Assembly: GCA_002329445.1 (NCBI GenBank) | Contig: DCTU01000070.1 | Location: 13,883-49,900 of the forward strand | Origin: a bacterium UBP9_UBA1432 | GTDB taxonomy: Bacteria; Vulcanimicrobiota; Xenobia; Xenobiales; Xenobiaceae | Direction: 5' to 3' | Length of the DNA stretch: 36,018 nt | Part shown: piece after piece, positions 26,839 to 34,893 of the stretch | How positions within the stretch are numbered: position 1 is the first letter of the stretch | How the letters are laid out: each line of letters opens with the position of its first letter | Notes under the pieces: model-generated | What the model saw: the letters and a program-made list of their open reading frames with translations, nothing else | Told to the model about the DNA's origin: nothing | Databases searched by the model: none | Position numbers and translations under genes: made by a program

Positions 26839-27151
26839 GTGTTCGCCCCTTGGATGAAGGTTCGCGTGGCGCGCGAGGTCGCGCAGCCCGGAGCGGGTCG
26901 AAACCCGGCTTCCAGAGTTCCATCGCGGCCCCCTTCCTCCCTGCCTTGGAGTCGCGACCAGGAGGAGGAGACGGGGGCCTCCTCCCCTGGAGGTCGAGGA
27001 AAAACTCCCTGTTCATGGGAATCGTGGCGAAATGGCAACAAAACGCTAGACCGCGCGGGAGCCCCGGGGGATAGGATCCTTGGGGGAGGCCTGCGCGCCC
27101 CTGGTCCAGTTCTTCCGCACCCTCCGGCCTCCCTCGAGAAGGAGAATCCTC

Positions 27152-28216
27152 ATGTCCGACCAGACCAACCCGCAGCGCGAGATCGACAGGCGTCCCATCC
27201 GACGCCTGGAGATCCGCCCGCTCGGCGAGGGCGCCTCTGCGGATCAAGAGCGATTCGAGACCGTCCTGACCGATCCCACCTCGCAATCAGCCGGAGAGCC
27301 GGCGTTGCATGCACCGGCTCCTCTGGATCGGGAGGAAACCGAGTCTCCGGGTGCCGGAAGGGTGCGCCCCCGGGCGGCGCATGACCGCTTCACGACCACG
27401 CTGGCGGTGCTGCTGTTGCTGGGCGTCTCCCTTCTCGGTCTGGTGCTGGTCCGCTCCGCCGGCCTGCCTCCGGGCCAGGAGGCTGTCGAGACCGCCGTCT
27501 CCGGATCCGCTCCAGCACCCCTCGCTCCCGCTGCGTATTCCGTTGCTCCGCTGCCGGTCTATCCGGTGCCCGGGACCTCCTCGGCGTCCTCCTCGGTCTC
27601 GCCCATCCCCATGGCACGACAGCGGCAGGCTCCCCGCCCGGATCCGGCCCCCGCCCGGACCGACTCGGTGGTGCAGACCCCTTCCTCCGTCCTTTCCGAA
27701 GAGTCGTCGGCGCAGGCCCCGGCCGACGACAAGCCGGTCCCTGCGGGAGAGATCGAGCAGGAGACCCCCCCGGCGGTTGAAGCCTTCTCGGCGGATTCCG
27801 AAGCGCAGGCTTCCCAGCCTCAGGCGGCTGCGCCGGCGCCCCGGCAGGTCCAGCCGGGTCAACCCGTTCGCCTGGCCCCGGGGCACTCCGCGTCAGCGGC
27901 TGCGCGGCCTGGAAGGCCGGATGTGGTGATGTCCGCCCTGCAGGAGGCGAAGCCTTCCACGGCTTCAAAGCCTCCGGCCCGGCAGGTGTCTCTCCCGCCT
28001 CGTCCGACCCTGCGCCCCCTCCCGCCGGATTCCCAGGTTCCACGTCAGGTGGCCTCGGCCACGGGCTTGAACGTCCCCTTGCCCTGGACGGTGCAGGCCC
28101 CCGCTCCCTCCCAGGCTGCCGAGAAGAGATCCGGCACCTCGGAGGCACCACGCTCCCTGGCCACCTACCTGGCCAATCCCTGGTTGCTGTTGCCTCCGCT
28201 GCGGGGCGAGCACTGA
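27152..28216 (+). CDS. Hypothetical single-pass membrane protein with long Pro/Ala/Ser-rich low-complexity region
   Basis: ATG lies 7 nt after AAGGAG (27139-27144), with GC3-biased codons. TM: TTTLAVLLLLGVSLLGLVLV. The rest is low complexity, with no recognisable domain. Confidence 0.55.
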   Translation: MSDQTNPQREIDRRPIRRLEIRPLGEGASADQERFETVLTDPTSQSAGEPALHAPAPLDREETESPGAGRVRPRAAHDRFTTTLAVLLLLGVSLLGLVLVRSAGLPPGQEAVETAVSGSAPAPLAPAAYSVAPLPVYPVPGTSSASSSVSPIPMARQRQAPRPDPAPARTDSVVQTPSSVLSEESSAQAPADDKPVPAGEIEQETPPAVEAFSADSEAQASQPQAAAPAPRQVQPGQPVRLAPGHSASAAARPGRPDVVMSALQEAKPSTASKPPARQVSLPPRPTLRPLPPDSQVPRQVASATGLNVPLPWTVQAPAPSQAAEKRSGTSEAPRSLATYLANPWLLLPPLRGEH

Positions 28217-28400
28217 GGGCTTTCCGGACTGAACCGGGGGCCGGTGCTTCTGCCCCGGTTCGGCACGGCGCGTTCGGGCAGGTGGAGCGTTCCTGAAGAA
28301 GGGACTGAGGCCCCGGTCTAGTATCTTCTGCTTTCTGCCCGATGGCCCGACCTGTCAGGAAGCCTGCAGGGAGCGCCGCATGCGACTGGAGGAGACGACG

Positions 28401-29399
28401 ATGGTGAAGTGCGATCACGGCAACGGCACGCAGGGGCGAATCCTGGTTGCGGGGTCCCTGGCCTTCGACTTCATCATGGGGTTCCCGGGTCGCTTCCAGG
28501 AACACATCCTTCCCGAGAAGCTGCACATCATCAACCTCTCGTTCCTGGTCGATCGGATGCGCAAGCAGCGGGGAGGGTGCGCCGGGAACATCGGCTACAC
28601 CCTGGCCCTGTTGGGCGAGAAGCCGCGCCTGGTGGCGGCGGCCGGTGGAGACTTCGGTTCTTATCGCAGCTACCTGGAAGGCTTGGGTGTCGACACCTCG
28701 TGCATCGCGCAGCATCCCGACGAGATGACCGCCACGTGCATGATCACCACTGACAAGTCCAACAACCAGATCACCGGCTTCTACGTCGGGGCCATGGCCC
28801 GGGCCCGGGAGATCAGCCTGAAGGCCTGCGTCACTCCTTCCACCTGCTTCGCCGTGGTGGCGCCGGACGACCCGCCCGCCATGCTTCGCCATGCCTGCGA
28901 GGCCCGCGAGGCGGGCGTCCCGGTCATCTTCGACCCTTCCTTCCAGGTGATCGCCCTGGACGGAGAGGAGCTGATGCGGGGGGCCGACGGGGCCAAGGCC
29001 CTCATCCTCAACGACTATGAGTTCGCGGTCTTCCTGGAGAAGACCGGCCTCACGCTGGACGAGTTGCGTCAGCGCATCGAGCTGGTCGTGGTGACCCTGG
29101 GCGAGAGGGGGAGCCGGATCCATACCCGCGAGGGTCGGGACATCGAGGTGGCCCCCGTGCGGATCCAGCAGGTCGTCGACCCCACCGGTGCCGGGGATGC
29201 CTACCGCGCCGGCTTCGTGCACGGCCTGGTGCGCGGCGAGGATCTGGAGGTCTGCGGGCGCAAGGGCAGCGTGGCCGCAGCCTACGCCATCGAGAACTAC
29301 GGCACCCAGAGCTTCACCTTCACCGTCGAAGAGTTCAACCAGCGCTACTTCGAGAACTACGGGGTCAGGCCGCCGGCGGAGGCCCTGGCCGCCTGCTGA
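28401..29399 (+). CDS. PfkB-family carbohydrate/nucleoside kinase (adenosine-kinase-like)
   Basis: ATG lies 6 nt after GGAGGAG inside the 28380..29399 ORF. Motifs: ILVAGSLAFDFIM, GGCAGNIGYTLALLG, C-terminal DPTGAGDAYRAGF. Confidence 0.85.
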   Translation: MVKCDHGNGTQGRILVAGSLAFDFIMGFPGRFQEHILPEKLHIINLSFLVDRMRKQRGGCAGNIGYTLALLGEKPRLVAAAGGDFGSYRSYLEGLGVDTSCIAQHPDEMTATCMITTDKSNNQITGFYVGAMARAREISLKACVTPSTCFAVVAPDDPPAMLRHACEAREAGVPVIFDPSFQVIALDGEELMRGADGAKALILNDYEFAVFLEKTGLTLDELRQRIELVVVTLGERGSRIHTREGRDIEVAPVRIQQVVDPTGAGDAYRAGFVHGLVRGEDLEVCGRKGSVAAAYAIENYGTQSFTFTVEEFNQRYFENYGVRPPAEALAAC

Positions 29400-29487: not shown

Positions 29488-30054
29488 TCAGGGCGGCCCC
29501 GCCAGCATGTTTCGGACCAGGACCACCTGGGAGACCCGGGCCTGCTGGAGGTGAACCGTCAACTCCCCGAAGGCCACCTCCTGGCCGGCTTCTCGGGGGA
29601 CCTGGCGCCAGGTCCAGGAATCTGGGGTCCGTTGTGAAGGTGGACCGAAGAGCCGCTCGACCACCTCGGGCGGGTCTCCAGGACGGATCAGCACCGTTTC
29701 GCCCAGCAAGAGCGGGTGCTGCTCGGCCATGATCGACAGGACCCGCCCGTCCTGGTCCAGGACCACCACGACCATGCCCTCTTGCCCAGGAGTCCGGTAT
29801 TCCAGCGTCTGGAAGGCACCGAGTCGGCTCCGTTCGGTCGGCTCGCCCAGGGTTTCGAGCACGGCGGCCTCGCCCTGCTCCAACCAGACCCCGGCCAGGA
29901 CCAGCGGCGGCGAAGACCGGGCCGACGGGGTGGGCGCGGGCGAGGCGACTTCGGGTATGCGGTCTCCCCACTGCAGGCCCCATCGGGCCAGCAGCGAGAC
30001 CGCCACCAGGACCAGGGCCAACTCCAGGAAGCGGACAAGCCGTCGGGCGTTCAT
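29488..30054 (-). CDS. Small N-terminally anchored hypothetical protein, last gene of the nuclease module
   Basis: Internal ATG (MNARRLVRFLELALVLVAVSLLARW...) of the 29488..31695 ORF, overlapping the upstream stop as ATGA (30051-30054). It has two G-x5-V-x3-(L/F)G-x-P segments (GEAAVLETLGEPT, GDPPEVVERLFGPPS). Confidence 0.6.
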   Translation of the reverse strand: MNARRLVRFLELALVLVAVSLLARWGLQWGDRIPEVASPAPTPSARSSPPLVLAGVWLEQGEAAVLETLGEPTERSRLGAFQTLEYRTPGQEGMVVVVLDQDGRVLSIMAEQHPLLLGETVLIRPGDPPEVVERLFGPPSQRTPDSWTWRQVPREAGQEVAFGELTVHLQQARVSQVVLVRNMLAGPP

Positions 30055-32387
30055 GGAGGAGTTTTCGACGAGGTTCGCTCCAGGACCCTGTGCAGCCCTG
30101 GCAATCCGGAGCGCCCATGGAGTTGAGTCCTGGGGGAGGCACCTGTCGGAGGCGTTCGCCTGGATTCTTGCAGGGGCCGGCAGCATCCGGCCTGCTGGTA
30201 GCCCGCCGCAGCGGCCTCGGCCGCGTCCTTGAACACGGCCGTGCAGTTCTTGCAGTCGTAGTTCCGGCACCCGGGGCGGTGGACGACCATGCTCCGGGTG
30301 TTTCCGTGCAGGGGGCCGGCGGCGTCGGGGGACTCTGGGGGCGCGGAGGCGGCGTCGCTCGGGGCGGTCGGTTCCGGAGGCAGGGACGTGGCTCGGGGTT
30401 GGCGTGCGAGGCGTCGGAACTCCCAGGGGGGCACGGGGCTGGCCTCCTCCCACAGTCCGATGCGCTGGACGCGGGCCCGCGTCTCGGCGCTGGCCAGCGC
30501 GGCCTCGCTGGAGTACTCCTTGGAGTGCCAGGCGTGGCCGGCCTGGACCAGGGCCAGGTTCAGATCGACCCCGTCCACGAAGACCCGCCCCAGGGTTCGA
30601 CCGTAGCGGTCCAAGCCATGGCTGCGGATTTCGAGGTCCCTGCCCAGCACCCGATCGGCCGTGAAGCGTTGGGCTTCTGGTCCGCCGACCTGCCCGGACT
30701 CCGGGCAGTCGACCCCTTTGAAGCGCACCTCCAGCACGCGGTTCGGCCAGGCGCGGACCCAGATGGTGTCGCCGTCGGTGACGCTCAGGGCCTCGGCCCG
30801 GAAGGTGGCCCCCGGCCGCGTCACGCCCCAGGCGAACCAGGCCCAGCCGACCACGAGGAGCAGCGACGCCAGGACGGCGGCCATCCCGACCCTCCTCCAG
30901 GAGTGGGAGGGTCGGGCCCAGGTGGCGCCTGGATCCGGAAGCGTGGCCGGGTCGTCGGGCTCGTCCGGAACCGCCCGGCGCTCTGCTGCGGTCCCTCGCC
31001 AGCGCTTCAGCGCTTGGTAGGTGGCCCATCCTGCCGCCACCGAGAGGACCAGCCCCAAGGCCAGCCACTCCGGCGAGGCCTCCGGCGGAGGCAGGCTGGC
31101 ACCTTCCAGTCGCAGGGCGCTGGCCACCTCGGCCGAGCGCCCCGAGAAGAAGAGGATCGTGGGCACCAGGAAGAAGCCCATGGCCTGGGCGCGCCGGGCA
31201 CCCGAGAGGGGGGCGACCAGGCCCAGGAGGCTGGCCGCGGCCAGGAGGATCAGCCCCCAGAAACCGGTGGTCCAGGCCACCAGCAGGACCAGGAAGACCA
31301 GGGTGGCCCCGTTGAGCCCTCCCGGATGCAGGTGGTTGATCAGGCGGGCCAGCCTCAGGCCGTTGCCTCTCAGCACCTGCTGGCATACCAGTCCCGCCGC
31401 CAGCATGGCCAGCCCCAGCGTCAGGAGTTGGCCCCGGCCGGGCTCGGGGAAGAAGGTCTCCAGGGCCGCCGAGGCTCCGCTGCGCGAACGCGCCAGAAGC
31501 GCCAGGGCGGCGATTCCGAACAGGGCATCCGAGAGGTTGATGGAGGAGACCATCACCAGGTAGCGGCGCCCGGAGGATTCGGTCTCGGGGCCGCGTCGGC
31601 GCAGCGAGGCCAGGGCCGCGGCGTTGCCTGCGCCGAGGCCGGGCAGGAGCCCCACGGCCATCCCTCCCAGGAGGCCCGCCAGGGCCGCACCCCAAGGAAC
31701 GTGGGAGGGGAGGGCCGTCTCATCCTGTCGGGGCAGGCTGGCGCCGGGATCCCGCAGGGCCAGCAGCAGGCCGGCTGCACCGAAGAGCCCCGTCAAAGCT
31801 GGAAAGAGCGCCCCGAATGCGGCCCCTTCGCCAGGGGACAGGGGGCTGGCGAAGACGACCAGGCCCAGAAGCCCGCTGGCCAGGAAGACGACCAGGGCCC
31901 AGCCGCTCCTCTGGTCGGTGGCGATCAGGAGAAGCGAGATCCCCGCCAACAGCCAGCCCATCCAGGGGCGCAGCAGGCCATCCACCGACGAGGCGAGCGG
32001 AAGGCCCCTGGCCTCCAATGCCAGGAGTCCGGCCACCATGGCCAACCCCAGGACCAGACCCCACATCGCACCGGAAAGGGTGTAGCCCAGGGCCTCCAGG
32101 CCTCGCCCCCGGCGGACCAGGCGATGGGCAGGCAGAAGGGCGTAGGCCTCGTCGGATGGGACTCCGAGGAAGAGCGAGGGCACCGCCTCGAAGAAGGCGT
32201 GGGCCACCGCAGCCGTCACGACGCCGACGGCCGCTGCCAGGGGGGGCACACCCAGGCTTGTCCAGACGGGGGCCGAAGCGGCCAGAAGCGCGGCCGCGAC
32301 GTTCACATGCAGGCCAGGGGTCAGGCCGCTCAGGATGCCGGTGGCCATTCCCACCACGAAGGCCATCACCAGGGCCAGCGGCTCCAT
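30051..32387 (-). CDS. Fusion protein: TctA/DUF112-like polytopic membrane domain + thermonuclease (SNase) domain + Ada-like Cys-rich C-terminal tail
   Basis: ORF track, 778 aa. ATG lies 9 nt after GGAGG. Two G-L-x-PGL repeats (GILSGLTPGLHVN; VGLLPGLGAGN) sit in ~12 hydrophobic helices (aa 1-520). SNase motifs: VTDGDTIWV, VRFKGVDCPE, DRYGRTLGRVF, ALVQAGHAW. Tail: HGNTRSMVVHRPGCRNYDCKNCTAVFKDAAEAAAAGYQQAGCC. Confidence 0.8.
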   Translation of the reverse strand: MEPLALVMAFVVGMATGILSGLTPGLHVNVAAALLAASAPVWTSLGVPPLAAAVGVVTAAVAHAFFEAVPSLFLGVPSDEAYALLPAHRLVRRGRGLEALGYTLSGAMWGLVLGLAMVAGLLALEARGLPLASSVDGLLRPWMGWLLAGISLLLIATDQRSGWALVVFLASGLLGLVVFASPLSPGEGAAFGALFPALTGLFGAAGLLLALRDPGASLPRQDETALPSHVPWGAALAGLLGGMAVGLLPGLGAGNAAALASLRRRGPETESSGRRYLVMVSSINLSDALFGIAALALLARSRSGASAALETFFPEPGRGQLLTLGLAMLAAGLVCQQVLRGNGLRLARLINHLHPGGLNGATLVFLVLLVAWTTGFWGLILLAAASLLGLVAPLSGARRAQAMGFFLVPTILFFSGRSAEVASALRLEGASLPPPEASPEWLALGLVLSVAAGWATYQALKRWRGTAAERRAVPDEPDDPATLPDPGATWARPSHSWRRVGMAAVLASLLLVVGWAWFAWGVTRPGATFRAEALSVTDGDTIWVRAWPNRVLEVRFKGVDCPESGQVGGPEAQRFTADRVLGRDLEIRSHGLDRYGRTLGRVFVDGVDLNLALVQAGHAWHSKEYSSEAALASAETRARVQRIGLWEEASPVPPWEFRRLARQPRATSLPPEPTAPSDAASAPPESPDAAGPLHGNTRSMVVHRPGCRNYDCKNCTAVFKDAAEAAAAGYQQAGCCRPLQESRRTPPTGASPRTQLHGRSGLPGLHRVLERTSSKTPP

Positions 32388-32388
32388 G

Positions 32389-34893
32389 TCAGGATTCCTC
32401 CGAGACGGAGCGGACCACCAGGGAAGGCTGCCCGTTGTAGCGGTCGGTCCGGCCCTCGATCCGCAGGACGCGGCCGGATTCCAGGCGGCGGCGATCCAGG
32501 GGGGTTGTCGCGGCCTCGAACATGATGCCCTCCACCTGCGCGGTCCCGTCGTCCAGGACGAACTTCAGGTGGAGAGCGTTGCGGTTCCGGCTGCGGTGCT
32601 CCCAGATGCGGTGGACCCGGGCCGTCACGGCCACCTGGATGCCCTTCGGCATCGCGACGATCTCGGCCACCGTCGAGACGGGGACATCCTGGACGCCCTT
32701 CTCGAGGACCTGGAGATGGCCTCGGGTCAGCGGCAACAAGAAGGATCTCTTCCGCCAGACTCGGGGGATGGCCACCACGCTCACCCGGTCCCCGGAGCGG
32801 ATCGGTGGATCGACCAGGCCCAGGCGCGGCGAGAGCAGGACGGTCTGTGCGCCCTGGTCGGTCTTGATCGTGATCATCGCTCCATTGCCGGCGGTGGTCC
32901 GGGAATGGCTCACCCGGCCGATTCGGGTCACGGCGCCTGGTGGGGGCGGGGAGCTCCGCAGGCGCTCCATCTCCTGCTGGTGGCCCCACCACAGAGCGCC
33001 GCACAGGGCCAGGCTGGCCAGCAGGGCGGGCCAGGGGGACCAGGCGGGATCCTCGTCCCCGGCCGTCCTCGGCCGCAGCCACCCTTCCAGCCATCGGGGC
33101 AGCCGCCTGGAGGAGGTCGCGCGGCCGGTCCGGGCCTGCTCAGGGGCCTCTTCGCGAAGCGTTTCCTCCACGTGGGCCAGGGCCCGCAGTCGGGCGCGGG
33201 CCAGGGCCAGGAGGCCCTCCCGGGTGGCGCGGCGGAAGCCGTCCAGGACACGATGGCGGTCCTGGTCGGGCGGGGGGAGCCGTTGCCAGGCCGCGTAGGC
33301 GTACTCCAGGGGAACCTGGGAGCTGAAGCGCGCGGCACCCTCGTAGCAGGTGCCGTCGGGGAGATGGCCTTGGTTGTCGAAGAGGCGGGGCCGGAACTCC
33401 TGATCCAGTGGGCGGCCCTCGAAGGTCCAGTCGAACCCCATCTCCCGCGTCACCTGGGGCAGGGAATGGCCGAGAAACCCCAGGTTGTAGCGGCGGTCGA
33501 CCTCCTCGGCCAGGAAGGAGATCCGGCTCCGTTGAGGGGTCAGGAGTCGGGCCAGGAAGGGGTGCCCCTGAGGCTTTGCATTTCGGGTCAGGGCATTCTG
33601 CAGGGTCTTGAGGTCTCGTCGTCCGTACAGGAAGACCTGGACGGGCCCCGTCGTCTCCGGGGCACACGCCTCCAGGGCCTCTTCCAGCGCCGTCGCCCAA
33701 TCCTTCAGCAAGGCCTGCTCCTCTTCGGCGCCTGGCGGGGTCTGGGCCAGGCGCACCACCTCCCGGCGGGTCTGGGGGCCGACGACCAGGGCTCCCAGCA
33801 GGTAGACCCGATCCTCCAGATAGTCCCACCAGGCCTCGAGGAAGACCTGAACCCGTCCCGGGTGGGTCGGGCCGACCGGCAATCGGCTGGCCTGGGGGCC
33901 CTGAAGCCAGGAGCGGGCCTCCATGTCGGGGTCCAACCTGTGAGCGACCGCCCGGGCCCTCTGGATGTGCAGGTCCAGGTCGGTGCCCAGGGCCTCTCCG
34001 GCGCTCAGGGCGGCCACCTGGGCGGCGTGCTCGGAGGGGGTGCGCAGGGTCGCGTCGGGCTGCTCCTCCGGAGCCAACTCCTTCAGGGCGGCCAGCTCCT
34101 CGACCCGCGTGATCCCAAATCGGGTCAGGATGTCCTGCTCGCTGGCGCCCAGGAAGGGCACCAGCGCGAGGCTGCGGGTCTCGAAGGCCTCCCGCATGCA
34201 CAGCGCGTTGTAGGGGCAGCCCTCGCATCGCCGGGTCAGGTGGATTCGAGCCTCCTCGCGGGCGGCCCGGGCCATCCGCCAGGCCACCCCGCTCGGGGCC
34301 TCGACCATCTCCTGCACGGTCCGTCGAGAAGGGAGCAGATCGAAGGCCGTCGGCTGGTCGGACCTCCGTTCCGGCAGGCGCCACACCGAGCCCTTCAGGC
34401 GGGCTTCCAGGCTCTCTCCGCGGGTCATCTGCTCCAGCAACTCGCAGTAGATGGCCACCTGCACGCGGTGCTCGAGCCGGTCCCTGCGGCTGGCCTTGAT
34501 GTCGATCACGTGCAGGTCCACGGCTTTGGGGCTGCGTCCGCGGATCTGCACGATGTCCGCCCGGCCCCCGCAGGTGAACTCCCCCAGCGTTCCCCGCACG
34601 GGGGCCTCCACCAGGGTGACGGCCTCGCCGGATCGCAGGTGTTCCAGGGTGTCCTCGGGCGAGCCTCGGCGAAGGTCCACCACTCGGTGCCCCTGGCCTT
34701 CCAGGATCCGGTGGCAGGTCACCTCCCGCTCGGCTCCTCGCACCGACAGGAGGGGAGTCAGGAACTGCTCGGCCAGGTTCCAGCGCTCGAAGAGCCCGCG
34801 GGTCTCCGGAGGGTGGAGCCGATACCAGAGGAAACGCGCGCAGGACTCGAGCCGGAGGAATCCGGTCAGGTCGGTCGGGGCGAGATGGCGCAC
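32389..34893 (-). CDS. Multidomain nuclease: Cas4/RecB-like PD-(D/E)xK domain with 4Fe-4S Cys motif + HhH + RNase-H-like domain (TM0106-family-like), then a TM helix and C-terminal OB-fold
   Basis: ORF track, 834 aa (GTG start). C18 ... C223-x2-C226-x5-C232. GRADIVQI (D113), VIDIKAS (D131/K133), QVAIY. HhH-like LGASEQDILTRFGITRVEELAAL. RVQVFLEAWWDYLEDRVYLLG is the RNase-H-like start. Hydrophobic WSPWPALLASLALCGALWW. OB-like VAVTARVHRIW...LKFVLDDGTAQVEGIMF...GRVLRIEGRTDRYNGQPSLVV. Confidence 0.8.
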   Translation of the reverse strand: MRHLAPTDLTGFLRLESCARFLWYRLHPPETRGLFERWNLAEQFLTPLLSVRGAEREVTCHRILEGQGHRVVDLRRGSPEDTLEHLRSGEAVTLVEAPVRGTLGEFTCGGRADIVQIRGRSPKAVDLHVIDIKASRRDRLEHRVQVAIYCELLEQMTRGESLEARLKGSVWRLPERRSDQPTAFDLLPSRRTVQEMVEAPSGVAWRMARAAREEARIHLTRRCEGCPYNALCMREAFETRSLALVPFLGASEQDILTRFGITRVEELAALKELAPEEQPDATLRTPSEHAAQVAALSAGEALGTDLDLHIQRARAVAHRLDPDMEARSWLQGPQASRLPVGPTHPGRVQVFLEAWWDYLEDRVYLLGALVVGPQTRREVVRLAQTPPGAEEEQALLKDWATALEEALEACAPETTGPVQVFLYGRRDLKTLQNALTRNAKPQGHPFLARLLTPQRSRISFLAEEVDRRYNLGFLGHSLPQVTREMGFDWTFEGRPLDQEFRPRLFDNQGHLPDGTCYEGAARFSSQVPLEYAYAAWQRLPPPDQDRHRVLDGFRRATREGLLALARARLRALAHVEETLREEAPEQARTGRATSSRRLPRWLEGWLRPRTAGDEDPAWSPWPALLASLALCGALWWGHQQEMERLRSSPPPPGAVTRIGRVSHSRTTAGNGAMITIKTDQGAQTVLLSPRLGLVDPPIRSGDRVSVVAIPRVWRKRSFLLPLTRGHLQVLEKGVQDVPVSTVAEIVAMPKGIQVAVTARVHRIWEHRSRNRNALHLKFVLDDGTAQVEGIMFEAATTPLDRRRLESGRVLRIEGRTDRYNGQPSLVVRSVSEES

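Follow-up and report, generated by a model that had tools for sequence, protein, structure and literature searches.

Why a nuclease should be joined to a transporter-like membrane protein is the question raised by a gene on contig DCTU01000070.1 of the bacterium UBP9_UBA1432 (GenBank assembly GCA_002329445.1). The gene lies within a 36,018-nucleotide stretch of this contig (the window hereafter, meaning the whole stretch that was analysed) and encodes a protein of 778 amino acids, in which a TctA-like membrane core is followed by two extra transmembrane (TM) helices, a staphylococcal-nuclease-type (SNase) domain and a Cys/His-rich tail. An earlier note on this DNA, made from the letters alone, had pointed to the fusion of a TctA/DUF112-like domain with an SNase, and the fusion is real: both profiles match above their curated thresholds, and 24 of 24 aligned homologues also join TctA to SNase. 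We lean, if modestly, towards the reading that this protein and the OB-fold protein encoded directly upstream form a module, analogous to ComEC, for the capture, processing and import of extracellular DNA, and that they are the bacterial, fused form of an archaeal-type machinery.

This reading starts from published genetics in methanogens. In Methanococcus maripaludis JJ two adjacent genes, MMJJ_13020 for an OB-fold protein with a single TM helix and MMJJ_13030 for a TctA-like protein that has 11 TM helices, are each essential for natural transformation, as established with complemented in-frame deletions, and in-frame deletion of MMJJ_16440, which encodes a membrane-anchored thermonuclease, abolishes transformation (Fonseca et al. 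2023, PMC10133366). The TctA-like homologue is essential in Methanoculleus thermophilus too, and the authors put the TctA-like protein forward as the DNA transporter that was missing in archaea; bacterial counterparts and fusions go unmentioned in their paper (PMC10133366). An earlier comparative guess for the TctA-like protein had been a carboxylate carrier (PMC5898192). In the window we find a stand-alone TctA-like core of about 11 TM helices, an adjoining upstream gene for an OB-fold protein with a single TM helix, and a thermonuclease, here as a fused domain. The module thereby contains all three kinds of part known from M. maripaludis, two of them in one polypeptide, a Rosetta-stone link supporting a single machine. 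The two systems also agree in having no TctB or TctC, in the position of the OB-fold gene directly upstream of the TctA-like gene, and in a thermonuclease at the outer membrane face. They differ in that the window's module is bacterial, that its thermonuclease is fused through two extra TM helices, whereas that of M. maripaludis is a separate lipoprotein encoded elsewhere, and that the window's OB partner carries a large cytoplasmic Cas4-like region and its fusion protein a Cys/His tail.

In the fusion protein PF01970 covers residues 8-403 (profile positions 2-422/423, E=1.1e-35, 123.5 bits where the cut-off is 28.9), a full-length match which agrees with the earlier description of a TctA/DUF112 permease with one motif in each half: GILSGLTPGLHVN is found at residues 17-29 and VGLLPGLGAGN at residues 245-255. 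The corresponding hairpin motifs are LTPGLHVN (residues 22-29) and LLPGLGAGN (residues 247-255), and the invariant residues of the TctA core include H27, N29 and R302. An AlphaFold2 (AF2) model of the core on its own is confident (pLDDT 90, pTM 0.89) and has about 11 membrane helices and two hairpins. Compared with the PDB it gave no significant solved counterpart (best E=0.024, TM-score at most 0.35), and TRAP DctM was absent among the matches listed; when the fold search was run with the whole fusion model, SNase entries dominated the results.

The core falls into a cluster of stand-alone proteins from Methanoperedens, Thermoplasmata, Thermococci-like, Altiarchaeota and DPANN archaea, and the same cluster takes in a few cyanobacteria, Deinococcaceae and Exiguobacterium. 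As judged from this clustering, it belongs to a stand-alone, mostly archaeal TctA-like subfamily that lies outside the tripartite citrate transporters. With the TctA of TctABC, the citrate uptake system of Salmonella, it shares PF01970, a duplicated core and PG(L/I)G-type hairpin motifs, and it differs in standing alone, in its PGLHVN first hairpin and in having an OB-fold partner in place of TctB and TctC. The fusion gene is the single PF01970 gene in the window's genome, a whole-genome profile search found no TctC (PF03401) in this genome, which is 73% complete, and the neighbours of the fusion gene encode the OB-fold protein and a small unknown protein, neither of them TctB or TctC. A canonical tripartite tricarboxylate (TctABC) transporter was rejected for the lack of TctC and the different partner gene. 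Of the secondary-transporter-like domain claimed earlier, membership of the TctA family therefore stands, while a place in the tripartite tricarboxylate system does not, given the missing TctC and the sister clade of stand-alone archaeal proteins.

The nuclease part looks active. PF00565 matches residues 554-647 (E=6.2e-18, 65.6 bits, cut-off 21), and alignment to the Staphylococcus aureus thermonuclease 3mhb_A (E=7.6e-11) pairs D540 with D21, R555 with R35, D560 with D40, C561 with T41 and E563 with E43; R597, within the conserved YGR motif, is the equivalent of R87. The five catalytic counterparts named in the earlier note are thus all in place, and the catalytic residues are invariant or nearly so across homologues. 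In Foldseek the modelled domain fits a solved SNase structure, the target-normalised TM-score being about 0.83. The fusion protein has neither the ComEC competence domain PF03772 nor a metallo-beta-lactamase domain in a Pfam search at E<=1. A Cys/His-rich tail is present as the earlier note had said, but its likeness to Ada is weak: the tail (residues 703-738) reaches 24.2 bits (E=2.6e-5) with the NCBIfam model 'sunset' (NF051437), just below the 27-bit cut-off, and its best named PDB matches, to the N-terminal Zn domain of Ada, are non-significant (E=0.2-0.9). PF27542, perhaps the equivalent of the 'sunset' tail in Pfam, is placed by precomputed annotation on homologues that are 96% and 85% identical. 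Elsewhere in the window's genome there is a second SNase-domain gene, in a 511-residue open frame (C189:4037-4330, minus strand; PF00565 E=4.2e-22).

The upstream gene is tied to the fusion gene both locally and across genomes. Between the stop of the partner and the start of the fusion the sequence reads TGA-C-ATG, with one base between the two codons, and a GGAGGA Shine-Dalgarno motif precedes the fusion ATG; the arrangement is that of translationally coupled genes. All 26 usable bacterial loci, whether their TctA-like gene is fused or unfused, have a same-strand gene for a TM helix plus OB-folds directly upstream of it, and no other neighbour is conserved in them. A gene for a YdjM-type hydrolase was found neither in the window's genome nor beside the fused genes. 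Shorter genes of this kind occupy the same upstream position in at least six archaeal loci. Homologous partners match PF01336 and PF13742 together with the N-terminal OB of exonuclease VII (XseA), and a PDB sequence search with the N-terminal 620 residues of the window's partner found nothing. One relative, with a fusion protein 69% identical to that of the window, has a partner of 1,554 residues (L089:1335-5999; GCA_032941855.1, contig JAWDGO010000002.1), in the order PD-(D/E)XK nuclease, superfamily 1 helicase, TM helix, OB, and this partner aligns with the window's partner (61-66% identical) on both sides of the helicase insert of about 700 residues (AAA_11/12/19/30). The module of this relative is flanked by a PemK toxin gene and an IS66 transposase. 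The Methanoperedens loci (L028:1991-2665, minus strand, and 14 others) have no same-strand OB gene upstream and share a divergent conserved gene for 92-306 residues.

Which side of the membrane the SNase faces, a point raised by the earlier note, receives the same answer from every argument: outside the cytoplasm. The two further helices between core and SNase that had been noticed earlier are seen in both hydropathy and the AF2 model, the loop between them is flanked by KRWR and SWRR in agreement with the positive-inside rule, and helix B is predicted to return the chain to the outside ahead of the SNase. Linker helices number zero or two in homologues, always even, and in 16 of 24 fused homologues the Cys/His tail is replaced by Excalibur, which is named as an extracellular Ca2+-binding domain. 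For the partner, the OB-folds should lie outside because the ATP-dependent helicase of the 1,554-residue relative, which comes before the single TM helix, must be cytoplasmic. SNase and OB-folds are therefore predicted to face the same, outer side, with the nuclease of the partner, and the helicase where there is one, in the cytoplasm.

The fusion is widespread and rare at once. A scan of one genome per species yielded 356 relatives; among the best 80 of these 356 loci about 20 are fused, and every fused one is bacterial. Carriers of the fused form belong to UBP9 (the nearest named relative of the window), Acidobacteriota, Binatota, Rhodothermota, Gemmatimonadota, Thermodesulfobacteriota and Gammaproteobacteria, and at least eight bacterial phyla have it in all; the same architecture is found in the protein database at identities from 96 down to about 40%. 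A search of 1.84 billion representatives gave 1,264 subfamily hits at E<=1e-30, of which only about 11-14 clusters at 50% identity cover the two domains together. That two genes had been falsely joined by a misassembly or frameshift, for which one could cite the fragmented metagenome-assembled genome (MAG) of the window (464 contigs, 73% complete), has a negligible probability and was rejected: TctA and SNase share one frame in all 24 aligned homologues, from independent assemblies that include complete chromosomes and at 32-96% identity, the spread over phyla argues the same way, and the G+C content at third codon positions (GC3) is of coding type and coherent along the whole open reading frame (ORF).

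A tree of the membrane core unites the bacterial proteins in one clade with 100% support, and its sister is a large clade of archaeal proteins. There are two groups of fused forms, which implies at least two gains or losses, and within the larger fused group the branching order departs from phylogeny. In another Vulcanimicrobiota MAG a separate, convergent SNase-like gene lies just downstream of the TctA-like gene (L021:3978-4397, minus strand; tblastn E=2.8e-6), and this unfused sister of the window's clade is a possible pre-fusion or post-fission state. One Bryobacterales genome has its TctA-like gene matched in two pieces about 2.3 kb apart (G230:C6:369432-372991), as if interrupted by an insertion.

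As the module may import DNA, it might substitute for ComEC, and the distribution of ComEC among carriers bears on this. ComEC is absent in 13 of the 23 carriers tested, against its presence in 146/151 sampled Acidobacteriota and in 10/10 bacterial control genomes. With four orders from four phyla pooled, it is lacking in all 11 TctA-like carriers versus 29 of 203 non-carriers. Within orders (one-sided Fisher tests), the carriers and non-carriers that lack it are 5/5 and 15/76 in Bryobacterales (p=6e-4), 3/3 and 1/38 in Longimicrobiales (p=3.8e-4), 2/2 and 9/39 in the Thermodesulfobacteriota order (p=0.067) and 1/1 and 4/50 in Rhodothermales (p=0.098). The Fisher-combined value over the four orders is p=2.4e-6, or 2.3e-4 without the four index genomes, statistics which ignore phylogeny, come from orders picked after their ComEC-less index genomes had been seen, and include many MAGs. 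Of five ComEC-less carriers examined, three have no ComEA-type match, one has a sub-threshold match and one an atypical 697-residue protein with multiple helix-hairpin-helix motifs, and DprA is kept in four; ComEA-like matches are found in five of five ComEC-bearing carriers. The 697-residue protein, from the ComEC-less Rhodothermales carrier (G003:C1:2405835-2407364, minus strand), has at least four ComEA-type repeats and is unlike the ordinary small ComEA. A strict complementarity of ComEC and the TctA-like protein was rejected, the two being found together in the window's genome and in 10 of the 23 carriers. The ComEC of the window's genome (C388:619-1398, plus strand) is on a very short contig of 2.9 kb, so that its binning to the MAG is not verifiable.

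If the module does import DNA, the outward OB-folds, possibly together with a Zn-binding tail, would catch DNA on the outside of the cytoplasmic membrane, and the tethered nuclease, of the Ca2+ type, would cut it or degrade one strand. The TctA-like core would then form the conduit, or a membrane component indispensable to it, and the incoming strand would pass to the nuclease that the partner tethers on the inner side of the membrane, in one relative a nuclease-helicase. The likeness to ComEC/ComEA is one of logic: both have a DNA receptor or OB-fold on the outside, a polytopic domain in the membrane and a nuclease that faces outwards, and in four orders their distribution is complementary; there is no homology, and the resemblance is a functional analogy only. 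A wider proposal is that we are looking at a complete DNA-import machine, independent of ComEC/ComEA and common to archaea and bacteria, which has displaced ComEC/ComEA in lineages of at least four bacterial phyla, with the TctA-like fold acting as or gating the conduit and the SNase making the transported strand. This may be so, and we put it forward more tentatively than the reading as an import module.

Several observations weigh against import of DNA. The homology of the window's genes to MMJJ_13020 and MMJJ_13030 is inferred, the grounds being family, clade, TM count and the adjacency of the genes; none of the best 120 matches listed was a Methanococcales protein or named Methanococcus. 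No substitution is seen in the window's own genome, where ComEC and ComEA are both present; ComEC is kept in 10/23 carriers, so that the module is not simply a replacement, and in the Acidobacteriota-wide sample ComEC is present in two of three carriers; the limits of the ComEC statistics given above count here as well. To our knowledge the TctA class of transporters carries small anions, and we know of no precedent for a channel in it; nor is there a solved structure related to the modelled core that could serve as a guide. The SNase is non-specific and fits scavenging equally well. The M. maripaludis genetics, finally, show a need for the TctA-like protein in transformation and not that it is the DNA conduit (PMC10133366).

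The most serious competitor of DNA import is nutritional. The outward SNase, aided by capture through the OB-folds, would digest extracellular DNA or RNA to 3'-nucleotides and short oligonucleotides, and the TctA-like protein, as a secondary carrier, would import these anions or phosphate. The full-length PF01970 match is to a family of secondary carriers for organic anions, and SNases are non-specific, processive enzymes of a type known from surface scavenging nucleases with OB-folds, such as YhcR of Bacillus subtilis. Like staphylococcal nuclease and the YhcR-type surface nucleases, the window's protein has the SNase fold and catalytic residues, of the Ca2+ type, on the outside of the cytoplasm and in association with OB-folds; it differs from them in being anchored by a transporter-like domain of 11-13 TM helices, where they use a signal peptide, lipid or sortase, and in having its OB-folds on a separate partner protein. 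The retention of ComEC in the window's genome and in 10 of 23 carriers makes a distinct, nutritional role plausible, and a PfkB-family kinase gene lies convergent just downstream, although this neighbour is conserved only in the closest relatives. What scavenging leaves unexplained is why the related archaeal genes are essential for transformation, why a cytoplasmic PD-(D/E)XK nuclease, with or without a helicase, is fused to the OB partner in the window's clade, and why carriers in four phyla lack ComEC and ComEA. We consider scavenging rather unlikely on balance. The import of nucleotides or oligonucleotides, which the earlier note had suggested, accordingly keeps a place among the candidates, but the handling of DNA as a polymer is favoured because of the conserved OB partner, the cytoplasmic nuclease or helicase on that partner and the loss of ComEC/ComEA in many carriers.

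A role of the TctA-like domain as no more than a membrane anchor for a surface nuclease, such as one that turns over extracellular DNA in biofilms, with no coupled transport, is improbable. An anchor would suit the rarity of the fusion among subfamily representatives and the common use of helices or lipids to hold SNases in place; a conserved polytopic domain of 430 residues is, however, a costly one, its core residues are invariant between fused and unfused members, the OB partner is kept in every one of the 26 loci regardless of fusion, and in archaea the unfused gene is itself essential for transformation. Still less probable, in our estimate, is a role in envelope defence or exclusion, with a membrane nuclease complex destroying incoming phage or plasmid DNA at the cytoplasmic membrane. 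The presence of two nucleases, one of them Cas4-like, and a weak similarity to the SNase-containing PADLOC candidate PDLC01096 (E=1.4e-6) and to Cas4 models speak for it. These PADLOC matches, however, reflect generic SNase and Cas4 domain similarity, and no defence-system model was matched as such; there is no defence-island context within the window, and the pairing conserved in archaea and bacteria, with its link to transformation, points the other way. DNA import remains our preferred reading, and the parts described here are listed in Table 1.

Table 1. Positions in the window of the fusion gene, its partner and the small downstream gene, with their predicted parts
Feature	Position	Strand	Basis and remarks
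TctA-like/two-TM/SNase/Cys-His tail fusion gene, 778 aa	30051..32387	-	single ORF; Pfam TctA and SNase
TctA-like (PF01970/DUF112) membrane core, residues 1-432	31092..32387	-	Pfam; AF2 model
Extra TM helix A, residues 439-468	30984..31073	-	hydropathy, AF2 helix; KRWR...ERR behind
Extra TM helix B, residues 496-517/522	30822..30902	-	hydropathy peak 500-518 (H=2.13), AF2 helix 496-517; preceded by SWRR
SNase/thermonuclease domain, residues 525-655, predicted extracytoplasmic	30423..30815	-	PF00565, PDB alignment, Foldseek
Cys/His-rich C-terminal module, residues 695-737, putative Zn/nucleic-acid-binding knuckle	30177..30305	-	'sunset'/Ada-N-terminal-like, near threshold
Partner protein, 834 aa: Cas4-like PD-(D/E)XK region, one TM helix, two outward OB-folds	32389..34893	-	Pfam, TIGR03491/Cas4-like
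PD-(D/E)XK (Cas4/RecB-like) nuclease domain of partner, residues 85-232	34198..34641	-	PF12705 (PDDEXK_1) E=6.3e-9; PADLOC Cas4 models; CxxC...C at 221-232
Single TM helix of partner, residues ~621-641	32971..33033	-	sequence WPALLASLALCGALWWG
Two OB-folds of partner, residues ~650-830, predicted extracytoplasmic	32404..32946	-	PF01336 (tRNA_anti-codon OB) E=1.1e-8 at 754-830
Small membrane-anchored protein, 188 aa, downstream	29488..30054	-	ATGA overlap with fusion stop; no family match

Downstream of the fusion gene no gene is conserved across the compared loci. The 188-residue protein is confined to the closest relatives (it is found only in L002) and is accessory, and the PfkB-family kinase gene (28380-29399, plus strand) is likewise restricted to them. 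With its counterparts in L002 and L003 this kinase shares about 96% identity, versus 78-88% for the module's own proteins. Further on, positions 27080-28216 (plus strand) hold a long Pro/Ala/Ser-rich ORF of 378 residues that contains a single hydrophobic segment and matches no family. Since it does not pass the GC3 filter and a long antisense ORF overlaps it, it may not be a gene.

Our literature searches found no paper that describes a covalent fusion of a TctA-like protein with an SNase. The novelty claimed for this link in the earlier note holds for the fused bacterial form; the association itself has a precedent in the methanogen. What is new here is that a system which came to light recently, and has yet to be characterised, is found in bacteria in fused form and with a partner that carries a cytoplasmic nuclease. 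On how DNA crosses the archaeal membrane, genetics has pointed only to three components of one methanogen, namely an OB-fold protein, a TctA-like protein and a thermonuclease, and the bacterial fusion together with the coupling of the two genes provides independent comparative evidence that the three parts are one physical machine. The system is not confined to archaea, and in some bacterial lineages its presence goes together with the loss of ComEC/ComEA, which are otherwise almost universal. The fused forms, single-chain constructs that occur naturally, would make good structural targets for a membrane fold with no solved relative. If the reading as a DNA importer is true, bacteria would have a second natural route of DNA uptake, which would bear on predicting which uncultured organisms are transformable.

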